From Fimbriimonadaceae bacterium (GTDB lineage: Bacteria > Armatimonadota > Fimbriimonadia > Fimbriimonadales > Fimbriimonadaceae): a stretch of 64,000 bases of DNA. The position numbers and the translations under genes were made by a program. Under the pieces are notes generated by a model. It was not told the origin of the DNA. It did no database searches and was given only the letters and a program-made list of their open reading frames with translations. The stretch is from positions 36,014-100,013 of the forward strand of contig JBJXDW010000010.1 of the NCBI GenBank assembly GCA_046154445.1. Direction: 5' to 3'. The stretch's first letter is position 1. Every line of letters starts with the position of its first letter. Of this stretch, positions 1,181-6,558 are shown piece by piece.

Positions 1181-1578
1181 TGAAGCGGGAGTTGTTTGTT
1201 CAAGTTTTGATTTCGATAGTTGCATACTTTTTTAGCTCCATTCTTGTACGTGTTCCGGCATCAATTTTTTTGGATCGGGGCTTTCTCATCAATTCTCCCG
1301 TGAATTTGGTAATATTTGGAATAGTTGCAGTTCCAATACTTGTTTTCCAAGTTAGGAAAGAAGTTCGAGTGCCATGGTGGCTATTCTTATATGGAGCGGC
1401 TGTTGGGTTGCTGATGTTTTTGCAACCGGTGATGGTAGTGCGGGCCGATGCAAGGACGATTCAGATTGGCTTGCTAGCAGCATGGCATGAATGTGGAGCG
1501 ATCATAGCGTCGTTTTATGTTTATAAAATGTTAGATAGAATCATTCGCGCAGTTAGAGATATGGACGCAATTGATTAG
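1180..1578 (+). CDS. Hypothetical membrane protein (about 4 TM)
   Basis: ATG overlaps the upstream stop (TGATG); four hydrophobic segments. Confidence 0.65.
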   Translation: MKRELFVQVLISIVAYFFSSILVRVPASIFLDRGFLINSPVNLVIFGIVAVPILVFQVRKEVRVPWWLFLYGAAVGLLMFLQPVMVVRADARTIQIGLLAAWHECGAIIASFYVYKMLDRIIRAVRDMDAID

Positions 1579-1579
1579 G

Positions 1580-2401
1580 TTATGCAAGATCGAAGGCTTG
1601 ACCGACCTGACCGATTGAGAATCCAAGCTCCCTGGTGGCTTTTGTTTCTGGGGAGTTTTTGTTGAGAATGGGGTTGGAGTGGTTGAGGTGGATGAGGGTG
1701 GTTTTATTGGCATATTCCTTGAGATGGATGTGCGTGTCGACGACGAACGGGTGGGGGATTTTTGAGAGGTCGCGGCCGGGGAGTTCGGCGCGGCTGTAGA
1801 ACGTGGCGTCGAGGAGGAGGTATTCGTTGAGTTCGAAGATGGTGCGGAAGCTTCGGTCATTGTTTGGCCAGAAGTTGATGTCGGGGCAGTAGAGGAGTGA
1901 TTTGCGCGGGCCGATGACGAAATAGGCGAAGGTGTCGGTGAAATCGGGGCGGTGAGGGACGGCGATTTGAGCGATGGTGAGGTTGGGCGTGAGGACCGTT
2001 GATTCGTAGGATTCTAGTTCTTGGATGAGAATATTTTGATTGCGGATGAGGCTGGCCCAGGGTTCGTTGTTGCTGAGGAAACTGTGCATTTGCCCACTGC
2101 AGTAGACGGGGAGGTTTTGGGTGCTTCGTGCTTCGTTGCCGAGGAAAATGAGGCCGGTGTAATGGCCGATGTGGGCGTGGGTGAGGAAGATTCCTTTGAG
2201 AGTGAGGTGCGCGAGGGGGCGGGTGGCTTGCTCGAATTGAGGCGGGGCGTCGATGAGCCAGTAGCTTTGGGATTCTTCATCGATTATGGCGAGGCAGACG
2301 GAGGAGCTCGCCGGGAGATCGGGGTTTGTGCAGTTGGGGCACGTGCATCCGGGCTGGGGAAAACCGCCATCTTGGGCGATTCCGAGGAGCCGGGCGTGCA
2401 T
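1580..2401 (-). CDS. MBL-fold metallo-hydrolase, PqqB-like family
   Basis: LGIAQDGGFPQPGCTCPNC N-terminus, THAHIGH metal-binding motif, and PHP and IHLNHSN motifs. Confidence 0.85.
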   Translation of the reverse strand: MHARLLGIAQDGGFPQPGCTCPNCTNPDLPASSSVCLAIIDEESQSYWLIDAPPQFEQATRPLAHLTLKGIFLTHAHIGHYTGLIFLGNEARSTQNLPVYCSGQMHSFLSNNEPWASLIRNQNILIQELESYESTVLTPNLTIAQIAVPHRPDFTDTFAYFVIGPRKSLLYCPDINFWPNNDRSFRTIFELNEYLLLDATFYSRAELPGRDLSKIPHPFVVDTHIHLKEYANKTTLIHLNHSNPILNKNSPETKATRELGFSIGQVGQAFDLA

Positions 2402-2455
2402 AGTCTTGTGAGTTTACTGGGTGGGGCATGTGAACAGTTGTTTGAGCAAAACGTC

Positions 2456-3343
2456 ATGGAGGGTATGACAACACTCGCTTGTTTTGTGGCACTGGCTCTG
2501 GCACCGGTTTCGGAAACGAAGACGGTGGATGCGGCGGGATTGAAATGGAGTTATGTTTGGGCGAAGCCAAGTGGAAAAGTGAAAGGATTGATTTTTGCGA
2601 TGCACGGGGCAGGGGGAAGTGGGCAACAGTTTGCAGTTGATTCCAGATGGGTGGAAAAGGCAACGGCGGCGGGTTTTGCGATTGCTTTGCCGACGGGGCA
2701 GCCAGCTTTGCCTTCGCGGGCGGCGAATCCGAAGCAGAATCCGAATTTGTGGAATTCGGGTGAGTTGAACAGCCGAGGTCCCCGGGCAAAGGTGGATGAC
2801 TTTGCGTTTTTTGACAAGATGTTGAAGGACTGCGAAATGGAGGTTGGGGCGGTGCCGGTCTTTTTGGCGGGACATTCAAATGGCGCGGCAATGAGTTACA
2901 AACTTGCGGTGCATTGGCAGAGCAGGGTGAAGGGAATTGGGATGATGGCGGGGGATTTGAAATGTGAGCTGGGGCCGAAGCCGCCGCAGGTAATTCCTTC
3001 TCTGATTTTTGCGGGTGAGAAGGATCCACTATTGCTTTGGGAGGGGGGAACGGTTGATTTGCCTTGGGGGAATGCTAAGCGGAAGACGGAACCGGTTTTG
3101 AAGATTGTTGGAGGATGGGCGACTTGGATGGGGTTGCCGAACGCACCGAAAAAATCGACAGCGGCGAATGGGACGGTGGTTTATGACTATGGGCAGGGGG
3201 TGAGTTTGGTGATGATTCCGGGGCAGGGTCACGTTTGGCCGGGAGGTCGGACGGGTGAGCTTTCGGCTCGGAAGGAGGGTCAGGATTCGGGGAAGGTTGA
3301 TGCGACGGGTGAGTTGGTGAAGTTTTTTAGTAGTCGCAGTTGA
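2456..3343 (+). CDS. Secreted alpha/beta hydrolase, PHB depolymerase/LpqC-like esterase (paralog 1)
   Basis: HGAGGSG oxyanion region, GHSNG nucleophile, GEKD Asp and GHVWPG His. Start moved to ATG 2456/2465 because the longer ORF is antisense to the MBL gene. Confidence 0.85.
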   Translation: MEGMTTLACFVALALAPVSETKTVDAAGLKWSYVWAKPSGKVKGLIFAMHGAGGSGQQFAVDSRWVEKATAAGFAIALPTGQPALPSRAANPKQNPNLWNSGELNSRGPRAKVDDFAFFDKMLKDCEMEVGAVPVFLAGHSNGAAMSYKLAVHWQSRVKGIGMMAGDLKCELGPKPPQVIPSLIFAGEKDPLLLWEGGTVDLPWGNAKRKTEPVLKIVGGWATWMGLPNAPKKSTAANGTVVYDYGQGVSLVMIPGQGHVWPGGRTGELSARKEGQDSGKVDATGELVKFFSSRS

Positions 3344-3360
3344 ATTAGTGGAATTGATCT

Positions 3361-4305
3361 ATGGGACGTGTTAAACCTTGGTTGATCGGGTGCGTTGTGC
3401 TTGGTATGGCGTTATCGGCGGCGATTATTGGATTGGTGATGGTTCGGACGGCTTTTCGAACGGTTCCAGAAAATGTGAGGACGGTTCAGGCGGAGGGTTA
3501 TACGTGGGAGTATGTTTTTTCGAAGCCCAAGGGGAAGGCGAAGGGATTGATTTTGGCGATGCATGGGGCGGGTGGTTCGGGGCCGCAGTTTGATGAAAGT
3601 GGCCAATGGAGCAAGAAAGCGAATGCGGCGGGTTTTGCGGTGGTTTTGCCGACGGGGCAAGCAGCGCGACCAAATCTGCCAGCCAATTTTCGGACTAATC
3701 CTCACCTGTGGAATTCTGGTCAGTTGAATTCAGGATCGCCGCGGACAAAGATCAATGATTTTGCGGCGCTTGAGAAGATTGTGGGCGAGTGTCAGAAGGA
3801 GTTGGGGAATGTTCCGCTGTTTGTGAGTGGACATTCGAATGGGGCGGGTATGAGTTTCGCGGTGGTGAGTGAGTGGTCAGACAAAGTTACGGCGATGGGA
3901 ATAATGAGCGGAAATTTGCTCCACAAAGTTGAAGGGAAGGCAAAGAAACCGGTTCCGACACTGTGGATTGTGGGCGAGAAGGATCCGCTTTCACCGTTTG
4001 ATGGTGGGACAACAAAGATGGAAATTTGGGGGACTGAAAAGGAAAATCGCCCGGTGATGGAGGCTTCGAAACAGTGGGCGGAATGGAATGGATATTCGGG
4101 TGCGGTTAGAAAACTGGATGTCAAGGATGGGGTGACGGAGTTTCGGTATGGGGATGTGGTTCGGGTTTTGGAGTGCATGGGGCATGGGCACGCTTGGCCC
4201 GGTGGGAAGAAGGGTGAGTTGCCGGCTTCGATTATTGGGCCGGATGTGGCGAAGATGGATGCGACGAGTGAGTTGGTGAAGTTTTACCAAATGTTTCTGA
4301 AATAG
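3361..4305 (+). CDS. Alpha/beta hydrolase, PHB depolymerase/LpqC-like esterase (paralog 2, N-terminal membrane anchor)
   Basis: Same motifs as paralog 1 (HGAGGSG, GHSNG, GEKDP, GHAWPGG) plus a hydrophobic N-terminal helix. Confidence 0.85.
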   Translation: MGRVKPWLIGCVVLGMALSAAIIGLVMVRTAFRTVPENVRTVQAEGYTWEYVFSKPKGKAKGLILAMHGAGGSGPQFDESGQWSKKANAAGFAVVLPTGQAARPNLPANFRTNPHLWNSGQLNSGSPRTKINDFAALEKIVGECQKELGNVPLFVSGHSNGAGMSFAVVSEWSDKVTAMGIMSGNLLHKVEGKAKKPVPTLWIVGEKDPLSPFDGGTTKMEIWGTEKENRPVMEASKQWAEWNGYSGAVRKLDVKDGVTEFRYGDVVRVLECMGHGHAWPGGKKGELPASIIGPDVAKMDATSELVKFYQMFLK

Positions 4306-4407
4306 GTCGTTGGCACGAATCTGGCTCAAAACACGTCTTGGATTTTACGGGTAGGATTACAACTACTTGTAGTCACATATGAAACAGAATTTCGATGGAG
4401 GTTTGGC

Positions 4408-5145
4408 TTGATGCCTGAGTTCACCAATGTCCCTTTAGAAGAGGTTGCCTTGAGGCTGACATTATCAGCTGGCATAGCCTGGAATTTGGAAAGGGCAATG
4501 CGTTTACATTCAGTTCTTGGCAATGACTTTCAGGTGATAAAAGAAACACACGGTTTAGAACAAATTCCTGGAATGGATGGCTACATGACCGAAATTCCTT
4601 TTGGTGCGATTGCAGGAATTGAATTGCAAGATACAACGAATGGTGTCAGATTAATGTCACAGGCGAATCTAGTTAAAGTAAGTTGGCACCAAGGAATTTC
4701 CCCTGATAATAAGTATGTCAGATTTGACTATCTTCTTGATTTGTTAGTTAAATTTTATGGAATTTTACAGAAGTTAGTAGATAATCCATTGCCTGTTATG
4801 GTGGCCAATATGAGCTATCTTGATAAGGTGAATGATGGAAAAACTGATGCTGAATATTTTTTAGAAAAATATTTAGATAGATCATCTTTTCCTAGCCTTT
4901 TTCCTGATGATGCGCATGTAAATCACGTTGATTCTTCCTGGAAACTAGCTGATGGTATTGACATCCGCTTTCAGTTTCGTAGAATAGAGGAACCTACAGG
5001 ATATGCGTTTATAACCTCAGGCGGCAAAATTCTTGAAGAAGGTGATCAATATGGTGAATCACTTAAATCAATTAGAGTTCACTTGCATGAATTTTTCCTA
5101 AAGCAGCTATCAGAGAATGGCAAGAAGGAATTTGGCCTTTTATGA
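4408..5145 (+). CDS. TIGR04255-like family protein
   Basis: FTNVPLEEVAL N-terminus, Q...W...KYVRFD..L and NMSYLD motifs resemble the TIGR04255 family. GGAGG SD before TTG/ATG; AT-rich. Confidence 0.65.
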   Translation: MMPEFTNVPLEEVALRLTLSAGIAWNLERAMRLHSVLGNDFQVIKETHGLEQIPGMDGYMTEIPFGAIAGIELQDTTNGVRLMSQANLVKVSWHQGISPDNKYVRFDYLLDLLVKFYGILQKLVDNPLPVMVANMSYLDKVNDGKTDAEYFLEKYLDRSSFPSLFPDDAHVNHVDSSWKLADGIDIRFQFRRIEEPTGYAFITSGGKILEEGDQYGESLKSIRVHLHEFFLKQLSENGKKEFGLL

Positions 5146-5654
5146 ATACGACACTGAACGCAACATTATATACTGCATTGTGTACCCTTTCTGAGATTCT
5201 TGATCAGTCCGAGTATAAATCTCGATTGTTAAAGAATATTGATTCCAGGATCGAAGAGCTTGAAGAAGAGGCAATTGAATATGGAGAAAAAGCTTTGCAG
5301 CCTGGTCAGGTTGAAGAAATTAGGCAGGTTTATCTAGATATTGCTTTAAAGATGGGTAACTCGAGAAAAATCGGAGTTACCCGAGACGCAGATGCCAAAT
5401 TGTCACTGCAAGTTCTTGATAATGAAGTTGGCAAGCAGTTGACGCTTTATATTAAACCTAGTAATACTTGGCTAGAGCTAATGTGGCTCGATTCGGAGCA
5501 AAAAATTTGTGGGCCCTCGATATTGTTTGGCGATCCTGTCTCGATCCTGAGAAACGAACGTTACTGGCAAGCGATTTCTTCGCAGTCATTCAAATTGCTT
5601 GATGCTACAGGAGACTTGGTAGGAGCGGTGCAGTTGCCGTCAAAAATGATCTAA
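5142..5654 (+). CDS. Hypothetical protein (middle gene of three-gene module)
   Basis: ATGA overlap with the upstream gene; 170 aa; AT-rich. Confidence 0.7.
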   Translation: MNTTLNATLYTALCTLSEILDQSEYKSRLLKNIDSRIEELEEEAIEYGEKALQPGQVEEIRQVYLDIALKMGNSRKIGVTRDADAKLSLQVLDNEVGKQLTLYIKPSNTWLELMWLDSEQKICGPSILFGDPVSILRNERYWQAISSQSFKLLDATGDLVGAVQLPSKMI

Positions 5655-5660
5655 AGTTTT

Positions 5661-6089
5661 ATGTCAGAACCTCGTTTGCTTCGACGATTAAGACCCCGCA
5701 AAAACGAGTTGGAAAAATTGTCAGATAGTACTTATTATATTCATGATAACGCATTTAATATGGATGAAAATTCTGGGTGTTCGGTTACTAAGCAAAGCGA
5801 ACCCAACCTCTCAGACGCTTGGTTGCATTCATACTGGTGCCATGTGGATTGTCGAATGCCCTCTGGCGATGCTTTGGCAATATGTTACATAACTGTTGCA
5901 CAAGCTGAAGATTCTAATGCAAATGTTGTTTCGACTCCTTCAGAAAAATGCTTTCCTGATTTGCATTACGAGATTTTGTATGAGTCGGAGTCCGCAAAGA
6001 AAAAATTAGGTATGTACGCTAGGGTGAACGGTCTTATAAAACAACCGATGAAGGAGGCAAAAATCACCAAGTCAGGTTGTTGTAGTTGA
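5661..6089 (+). CDS. Hypothetical protein with R...AF...SV...H pattern (possible ADP-ribosyltransferase-like fold)
   Basis: Starts 6 nt after the upstream stop; LLRRL / NAF / GCSV / PDLHYEI motif spacing. Confidence 0.65.
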   Translation: MSEPRLLRRLRPRKNELEKLSDSTYYIHDNAFNMDENSGCSVTKQSEPNLSDAWLHSYWCHVDCRMPSGDALAICYITVAQAEDSNANVVSTPSEKCFPDLHYEILYESESAKKKLGMYARVNGLIKQPMKEAKITKSGCCS

Positions 6090-6115
6090 GGCAAATCTGC
6101 ATAACCGGAGAAGGT

Positions 6116-6169
6116 TCACTCTTCTAATATGAGGTTCGGCATTCTGGTAATTCGTAAATTACACGTCAT
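6116..6169 (-). pseudogene. Truncated RelE/ParE-type toxin stub
   Basis: ATG overlaps the end of the Phd antitoxin; MTCNLRITRMPNLILEE* resembles a ParE N-terminus but stops after 17 codons. Confidence 0.4.
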
Positions 6170-6440
6170 ACTTTGCCCGCATTCTTTCATAGACTGCTTC
6201 GGCGGATTTGCTCTCGCCATTATTGGCCTCGATTATTCCCTCGCGGACTGCTTCGAGGAACCGGCTTCGCTCGAGTTCGTTAAGCATTGCCTGATAGGCT
6301 TCGGCATCTTGAACGACGAGTTTGGCTTGACCGTTTACGGTGAGCACGAGAGGCTCCTTACTCTGCCCCAATTTGCCAACATATGTTTTAACGTTCTTTT
6401 GGAAGTTTGTGAGAGAGTCGATGGCAGTGGTTTTGATCAT
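6159..6440 (-). CDS. Phd/YefM family antitoxin
   Basis: SLTNFQKN...LVLTVNGQAKLVVQDAEAYQ is the typical Phd/YefM pattern. Confidence 0.85.
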   Translation of the reverse strand: MIKTTAIDSLTNFQKNVKTYVGKLGQSKEPLVLTVNGQAKLVVQDAEAYQAMLNELERSRFLEAVREGIIEANNGESKSAEAVYERMRAKYDV

Positions 6441-6558
6441 TTCAGGTAAGTCTCGGAATAATCATGTTATTCCATGCTCTTAATGACGTTTGAGGAAATC
6501 AGTTTGTCACAGACTTTCGGATGAATGTGTCCTCGCGGGTCCTGAAGGTGGCGTAGGA

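Follow-up and report, generated by a model that had tools for sequence, protein, structure and literature searches.

The closest described counterparts of the locus studied here are toxin-antitoxin-chaperone (TAC) systems such as HigBA-SecB(TA) of M. tuberculosis and CmdTAC, classical type II toxin-antitoxin (TA) modules, the PADLOC candidate PDC-M32, and the TIGR04255 protein family. The locus itself is a cassette of only 1.7 kb with three genes, g1, g2 and g3, in a 64,000-nt stretch of contig JBJXDW010000010.1 from a Fimbriimonadaceae bacterium of the phylum Armatimonadota (hereafter the window; all coordinates are positions in it). Like the TAC systems, the cassette is sporadic and mobile and consists of three coupled genes, which encode a third, conserved protein besides a presumed toxin and a presumed neutraliser. 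Unlike in these systems, the conserved protein is encoded first in the operon rather than last and is not SecB-like, and g3 is not HigB, MqsR, HicA or an ADP-ribosyltransferase (ART) by structure search. With classical type II TA modules, whose toxins include HEPN, PIN, HNH and Fic/DOC proteins, the cassette shares the small, overlapping genes in antitoxin-then-toxin order, the interchangeable toxins and the insertion between core genes, whereas its middle protein carries no HTH, RHH, AbrB or Phd domain and its additional first gene is obligatory.

PDC-M32 is one of 145 PADLOC candidates that were proposed by 'guilt-by-embedding' and derive from genes lying within BREX, DISARM and type I restriction-modification (R-M) loci (Payne et al. 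2024, bioRxiv 10.1101/2024.01.29.577857). Its B protein (~123 aa) falls by sequence comparison into the same superfamily as g3, the C-terminal domain of its A protein (~375 aa) is probably the counterpart of that of g2, and a relative of our cassette likewise lies within a type I R-M locus. However, where PDC-M32 has the 375-aa A protein, the window has a TIGR04255 protein and a short 170-aa protein. As for TIGR04255, its canonical members likewise come first in three-gene cassettes of this kind, whereas g1 of the window scores below the family cut-off and, judged by alignment, is a divergent family member from a clade that mostly travels with g3-type effectors. The TIGR04255-led architecture appears to be undescribed in the literature.

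In this study, we found that the three genes belong, with high probability, to a conserved mobile trio of a TIGR04255-led class. We further propose, at a probability of roughly 0.55, that the cassette acts as a TA-like or defence module with g3 as its effector. The toxicity of g3, its neutralisation by g2, the role of g1, the RNase chemistry and a part in phage defence are all points that we infer from context only.

Organization and recurrence of the cassette

All three genes lie on the forward strand. The initial annotation had described them as tightly coupled, and both an open reading frame (ORF) scan and the sequence bear this out: g1 and g2 overlap by ATGA, and g2 and g3 are joined by TAA-AGTTTT-ATG with a 6-nt gap. 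The g1 ORF opens at TTG 4408 or ATG 4411, and we place the start at ATG 4411 because the public gene call is 244 aa. The features of the cassette are as follows.

4397-4401, forward strand: Shine-Dalgarno sequence GGAGG, 9 nt before the g1 ATG, read from the sequence
4411-5145, forward strand: g1, 244 aa, first gene or 'hub', a divergent TIGR04255-family protein by its alignment to that model
5142-5654, forward strand: g2, 170 aa, fast-evolving middle protein, a putative neutraliser or adaptor by its position and the ATGA overlap
5661-6089, forward strand: g3, 142 aa, assigned to a Pfam-less family by leave-one-out hidden Markov model (HMM) and a putative effector or toxin by its position in slot 3, the third place of the cassette

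The cassette resembles type II TA modules in that its small genes adjoin one another, are coupled in translation and lie on a mobile, sporadic element.

The trio recurs at 18-30% identity in independent Armatimonadota genomes and on one metagenome contig, so that the layout is conserved beyond a chance neighbourhood. A whole-genome search of 40 relatives with g1 gave four matches at 24-28% identity (L002-L005), all with the same three-gene layout (228-259, 137-176 and 127-154 aa) and with pairwise identities of 18-25% for every gene. A g3 profile searched against 400 genomes of the phylum added three more loci, of which L009 is a full trio while L008 and L010 have g3 with other upstream partners; by this search, g3 is sporadic, with 5 of 401 genomes of the phylum. 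With a g1 profile, 25 unique loci were recovered from 19 of the 175 genomes of the family. A g3-family gene occupies slot 3 in 19 of these 25 g1-like loci after HMM iteration, and in all but one of the loci the slot-2 ORF reaches 100 aa or more.

Outside these genomes, when g3 was compared by full HMMER with 1.84 billion representatives, one credible relative emerged, P0004 (125 aa, E 1.3e-8), along with repetitive false positives. Word-indexed searches found nothing for g3, g1 itself only for g1, and one known relative for the g3 profile. P0004, whose true start lies upstream of the called one and restores an FVRRVRP motif, is encoded on a metagenome contig (L046) in a trio of 255, 141 and 125 aa adjoining alaS. 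The three proteins of this trio are 26% (g1), 23% (g2) and 30% (g3) identical to those of the window, and the GC content of the cassette is 0.51 versus 0.61 in its flank.

Two observations on the relatives may be added. At L008 (G207:C14, 642-1869) the g3-family gene is found without TIGR04255. A 129-aa ORF precedes it, as does a divergent ORF that takes the place of g2, and neither of these matches Pfam. The arrangement is a third one, distinct from both the TIGR04255 trio and the PDC-M32 pair. Among the genes next to the cassettes of L003 (2473-3390) and L002 (2442-3683) are those for a P63C-domain protein (86.5 bits) and for a DUF2130 protein (189 bits), both typical of mobile or phage-related regions.

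Slot 3 as an exchangeable effector position

We analysed 50 TIGR04255 loci, namely the 25 g1-like loci and 25 canonical ones, and in all of them two coupled genes follow the TIGR04255-type gene. The g1-like loci that have no g3 include one with HNH (L015, 22.8 bits against a cut-off of 21.4) and one with Fic/DOC (L027, 45.3 bits) in slot 3. In the canonical loci, slot 3 encodes HEPN proteins in five cases by Pfam (E <= 0.01), nine being of the same sequence type by eye, and PIN and HNH proteins in one case each. Two further groups of five proteins each have no Pfam match. One is marked by 'LTQxCD'. The other, with the pattern YRRV...AF...GLSV...GH, is similar to g3, as seen with the g3 HMM (3e-5 and 8.5e-5 by hmmsearch) and with the g3 profile (hhalign probability of 87% with E 4e-6 for the 78 N-terminal columns), and it also matches PDC-M32B (2.4e-4). 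Slot 3 thus holds HEPN, PIN, HNH, Fic/DOC or g3 relatives and is therefore a swappable effector slot, of which g3 is a recurrent occupant.

Of 401 genomes of the phylum, 73 have canonical TIGR04255 genes, up to six apiece. The genome G170 has six separate canonical loci, two of them on one contig ~7 kb apart, which suggests that the cassettes accumulate as TA modules do. In the canonical cassettes L056, L060, L069, L072 and L077, the slot-3 proteins (160-212 aa) have a 'v-L-T/S-Q-x-C-D/E-l' motif and no Pfam match; they may be another unnamed effector family.

The g3 family and its relation to PDC-M32

No direct match to g3 was found in Pfam, NCBIfam, PADLOC or PHROG. Its membership in a family is supported by a leave-one-out HMM, built from 20 relatives, which scores the window protein at E 2.1e-8. 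In an alignment of 22 family sequences (~20% identity), F32, S41 and H102 are invariant, R8 is nearly so and R9 is usual, while no acidic residue, hence no Glu, is conserved. The residues to which the initial annotation had drawn attention in g3, an R in the first strand, the F of AF, the S of SV and a late H, are thus conserved columns of the whole family. C-terminal tails that contain Cys are found in several proteins of the g3 superfamily (...SGCCS at 6069-6086 in the window, ...ECSGS in P0004 and ...PVTC at L003), and the effectors that we call type A have an invariant EEC in their C-terminal tail.

The link to PDC-M32 came through relatives. L010 is a complete PDC-M32 pair, composed of a 397-aa PDC-M32A (7.5e-131) and a 124-aa g3 relative that is PDC-M32B (1.3e-46), and the g3-family members of L003 (2e-7) and L030 (3.3e-6) match the PDC-M32B model as well. 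When this model was searched genome-wide, it matched at g3 positions only, in three of 19 genomes. By these sequence comparisons, g3 is distantly related to PDC-M32B and in the same superfamily. It is not a member by the PADLOC model itself, which does not match g3 of the window, and no ~375-aa PDC-M32A adjoins it among the window proteins, the upstream genes being those for 244 aa and 170 aa. PADLOC was one of the checks named in the initial annotation; its models do not recognise the proteins of the window cassette, and the distant relation of g3 to PDC-M32B is seen through relatives.

As to the surroundings of these relatives, the cassette of L004 lies inside a type I R-M system, with hsdR (EcoEI_R_C, 94.8 bits) on one side and hsdS (Methylase_S, 40.2 bits) on the other. 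PDC-M32B-like proteins are present in five plasmid records and were not seen in the phage collection that was searched. In the two plasmid records that we opened, from Rhodococcus and Limnohabitans, the PDC-M32B-like gene overlaps an upstream gene for 378-402 aa, and the Limnohabitans pair lies among RelE/ParE and VapBC modules. The embedding in an R-M locus, together with the PADLOC origin of PDC-M32, makes a role in phage defence plausible.

The structure of g3 was modelled with AlphaFold 2 (AF2) from a 9-sequence alignment, with a mean predicted local distance difference test (pLDDT) score of 89.6 and a predicted template modelling (pTM) score of 0.85. The model consists of strands at residues 5-10, 17-21, 24-27, 40-45, 73-78, 88-91, 102-106 and 125-127 and helices at residues 52-60, 79-84, 110-123 and 132-137. 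Foldseek returned nothing significant for it, with a best E of 0.55 (TM <= 0.25) in PDB and of 0.093 (TM 0.37, an unnamed protein) in BFVD, and PDB sequence-profile searches with g3, g1, type-A toxins and PDC-M32A gave nothing below E 0.02. The ART or nuclease fold that had been anticipated for the third gene was thus not found in either database despite a confident model. Nor do the conserved columns R8, F32, S41 and H102, with no Glu among them, conform to the ART signatures R-S-E, H-Y-E or H-H-h. Two weak family matches were set aside: DUF3715 (PARP-like), seen once in a single member at E 0.044, far below the cut-off and not recurrent, and AbiJ_NTD3, a single match whose model finds none of the g3 loci in the 19 genomes. 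The g3 proteins appear to be an undescribed, Pfam-less family of small alpha/beta proteins, whose predicted fold is confident but unmatched.

The g1 and g2 proteins

The resemblance of g1 to TIGR04255, noted at the outset from the sequence, holds over the full length of the protein. Residues 4-241 align to positions 2-251 of the 252-position NCBIfam model ('sporadTIGR04255') with E 7.5e-5 and 22.7 bits, albeit below the curated whole-protein cut-off of 30 bits, and a whole-genome search with the model misses g1. The same model matches 16 of the 25 members of the g1 clade, the best at 6.6e-16, and in the other direction the g1 profile matches 25 of 30 canonical TIGR04255 loci. Among the three genes, g1 is the best conserved and the constant member.

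The AF2 model of g1, made from a 25-sequence alignment (pLDDT 92.0, pTM 0.90), has two tandem beta-alpha-beta3-alpha lobes. In a Foldseek search of PDB it gave weak matches only (best E 3e-3, TM <= 0.27), which include helix-grip/Bet v 1-type proteins, di-domain aromatase/cyclases, EspG5 and Med18/20. The SecB-like fold that had been suggested for g1, and that the third component of TAC systems has, does not occur among the best 50 PDB matches listed, and the architecture of the model differs from it. We also considered whether PDC-M32A is a fused TIGR04255 protein and rejected this, the hhalign probability between its N-terminal part and g1 being 0.9%.

Slot 2 holds an ORF of 107-207 aa in 47 of the 50 loci, and nine g2 members could be linked by an iterated HMM. 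No match to g2 was found in Pfam, NCBIfam, PADLOC or PHROG. An alignment of window-type g2 proteins against the PDC-M32A-type C-terminal domains gave an hhalign probability of 60% (E 8.5e-5), and the slot-2 proteins of L029 (1.1e-8) and L057 (3.8e-4) match PDC-M32A at positions ~258-353 of 375. These alignments make the C-terminal domain of PDC-M32A the probable counterpart of the central and C-terminal region of g2 (residues ~27-111). The C-terminal domain of slot-2 proteins appears to vary with the effector, being PDC-M32A-like with g3-type and type-A effectors and different with HEPN. By eye, the N-termini of the slot-2 proteins share no motif, and no chaperone-addiction segment was identified in the cassette.

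Insertion site

The following two features complete the description of the site.

~4306-6535: low-GC insertion of ~2.2 kb between an alpha/beta-hydrolase gene (3361-4305) and the conserved lipA leader
6159-6440, reverse strand: solitary Phd/YefM-type antitoxin gene, convergent with g3 (PF02604, 31.8 bits; phrog_2268 antitoxin)

The GC content is 0.36-0.42 in the cassette (4400-6000) versus 0.50-0.56 in both flanks. The spacing between the hydrolase gene and lipA is 173 bp in G010, 212 bp in G011 and 48 bp in G006, all genomes of the same genus, and 2.25 kb in the window; the variable spacer between the two genes therefore carries an insertion here, namely the segment ~4306-6535, and the AT-rich insertion reported by the initial annotation is real. 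Consistently, a DNA search of 12 other genomes of the genus recovered lipA and its leader only from ~6533 of the window onward. The cassette is foreign, horizontally acquired DNA, and the site is empty in relatives of the same genus. Target-site duplications or terminal repeats flanking the insertion were sought with chance-level matches only, and a scan for promoters and terminators was uninformative.

There is no space for a toxin gene downstream of the Phd/YefM-type gene. None of the 12 other genomes of the genus has this gene at the site, and no homologue adjoins any of the other ~27 cassettes; it is a co-passenger of the insertion and not a conserved part of the module. On the upstream side, the hydrolase gene next to the insertion is the second of two tandem paralogues (~2400-3343 and 3361-4305). 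The GC skew is very strongly positive (0.3-0.5) across the flanking core genes (1400-4400) and much weaker in the cassette (0.04-0.19).

Discussion

The proposal from the initial annotation, that these genes form a mobile tripartite TA-like or anti-phage system, survives in its general form and fails in its particulars. The conserved trio, the exchange of toxins in slot 3, the embedding in an R-M locus and the link to PDC-M32B all speak for it, while the ART and SecB assignments do not hold. In the mechanism that we propose, g3 would be an effector or toxin acting through its conserved Arg/Ser/His set. g2 would be the cognate neutraliser, whose C-terminal domain would act on g3 and whose remaining part would contact g1, and g1 would be a constant hub that sets the conditions under which g2 releases g3. 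The trio would then be a candidate abortive-infection or anti-phage module.

The chemistry of g3 is the more tentative part of this proposal. A metal-independent endoribonuclease is our leading guess, albeit an unlikely one in absolute terms, because of the Arg/Ser/His set and the RNase-rich company that g3 keeps in slot 3. Some other phosphate- or nucleotide-directed activity ranks next.

Several points weigh against reading the cassette as a TA-like or defence module. The fold of g3 has no match to any known toxin in PDB or BFVD, which leaves the RNase chemistry as a guess based on three residues and the company kept. g2 has no DNA-binding domain recognisable with Pfam or NCBIfam, unlike classical type II antitoxins, which bind DNA and autoregulate their operon. 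The links of g2 and g3 of the window to PDC-M32 are transitive, that of g2 standing at 60% by hhalign. PDC-M32 has itself the status of a candidate, for which our literature search found no test and only a PADLOC annotation in one prophage survey, and the same kind of search found no mention of TIGR04255. Finally, the proposed role of g1 as a hub, be it a sensor, a stabiliser or a chaperone-like regulator, is one that we wholly infer.

Among the alternatives, the one that fares best holds that the functional unit is the g2-g3 pair, comparable to PDC-M32, and that g1 is a separable accessory, a regulator or stabiliser unneeded for toxin control. It accounts for the g3 relatives without a TIGR04255 gene, which are partnered by a 397-aa PDC-M32A at L010 and by another upstream protein at L008, and for the two-gene PDC-M32 pairs of plasmids. 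Yet two coupled genes follow TIGR04255 in every one of the 50 loci, g1 is the best conserved of the three, and g1, g2 and g3 diverge together (26%, 23% and 30% identity to L046). Moreover, the ~255 aa that make up the N-terminal part of PDC-M32A are missing from the short g2, an absence suggesting that g1 provides a function that the long A protein has in cis. We regard a dispensable g1 as unlikely, though worth keeping in view.

It is less probable still that the locus is no conflict system at all, either an accessory operon of another kind, for instance with g1 as a helix-grip-like binder or sensor of a small ligand and two partners, or a selfish addiction module that plays no part in defence. 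Such a view agrees with two observations: the proteins to which g1 is weakly similar in structure are ligand-binding ones of the helix-grip/Bet v 1 type, and the window cassette lies between housekeeping genes rather than in a defence island. However, those structural matches (TM <= 0.27) are not significant, nucleases and Fic proteins appear repeatedly in slot 3, one cassette sits in a type I R-M locus, and the distribution is sporadic and insertion-like.

The arrangement first suggested, a TAC or CmdTAC analogue in reversed order with g3 as a small ART toxin, g2 as antitoxin and g1 as a SecB-like chaperone, we now consider very improbable. Three coupled genes and the conserved R (strand 1), S (strand 4) and late H of g3 had favoured it, as does the single match of one g3 relative to the PARP-like DUF3715 at E 0.044. 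But that match is confined to one member and far below cut-off, the confident g3 model has no ART counterpart (best E 0.55 in PDB, 0.093 in BFVD), no conserved Glu is available for an R-S-E or H-Y-E triad, and g1 is built differently from SecB, which is not among its best 50 matches listed. That the Phd/YefM-type gene is the real antitoxin of g3, with g1 and g2 serving another role, can be set aside as hardly credible: it lies 70 bp from the g3 stop, shares the insertion with g3 and is without a cognate toxin gene, but, being convergent, it is not co-transcribed with g3, no homologue adjoins the other ~27 cassettes, and g3 relatives are never without a partner of the g2 or PDC-M32A type.

Returning to the TA-like or defence module with g3 as effector, a bolder generalisation can be offered, which we hold as a speculative possibility. 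There may be a large class of three-component conflict systems, hitherto undescribed, that have TIGR04255 proteins as their common hub, one conserved two-lobed protein governing many unrelated adaptor-toxin pairs, and the g3/PDC-M32B superfamily may then be a toxin of new fold with an Arg/Ser/His active site.

In summary, the window adds a new putative effector family, with a confident and unmatched predicted fold, and a bridge to PDC-M32. If the reading is true, it would assign a role to a widespread family so far of unknown function, TIGR04255, which is present in 18% of the 401 Armatimonadota genomes sampled, and would connect the PADLOC candidate PDC-M32 to a larger modular class. It would also add a toxin family without recognisable fold and extend three-part TA control beyond SecB-type chaperones.

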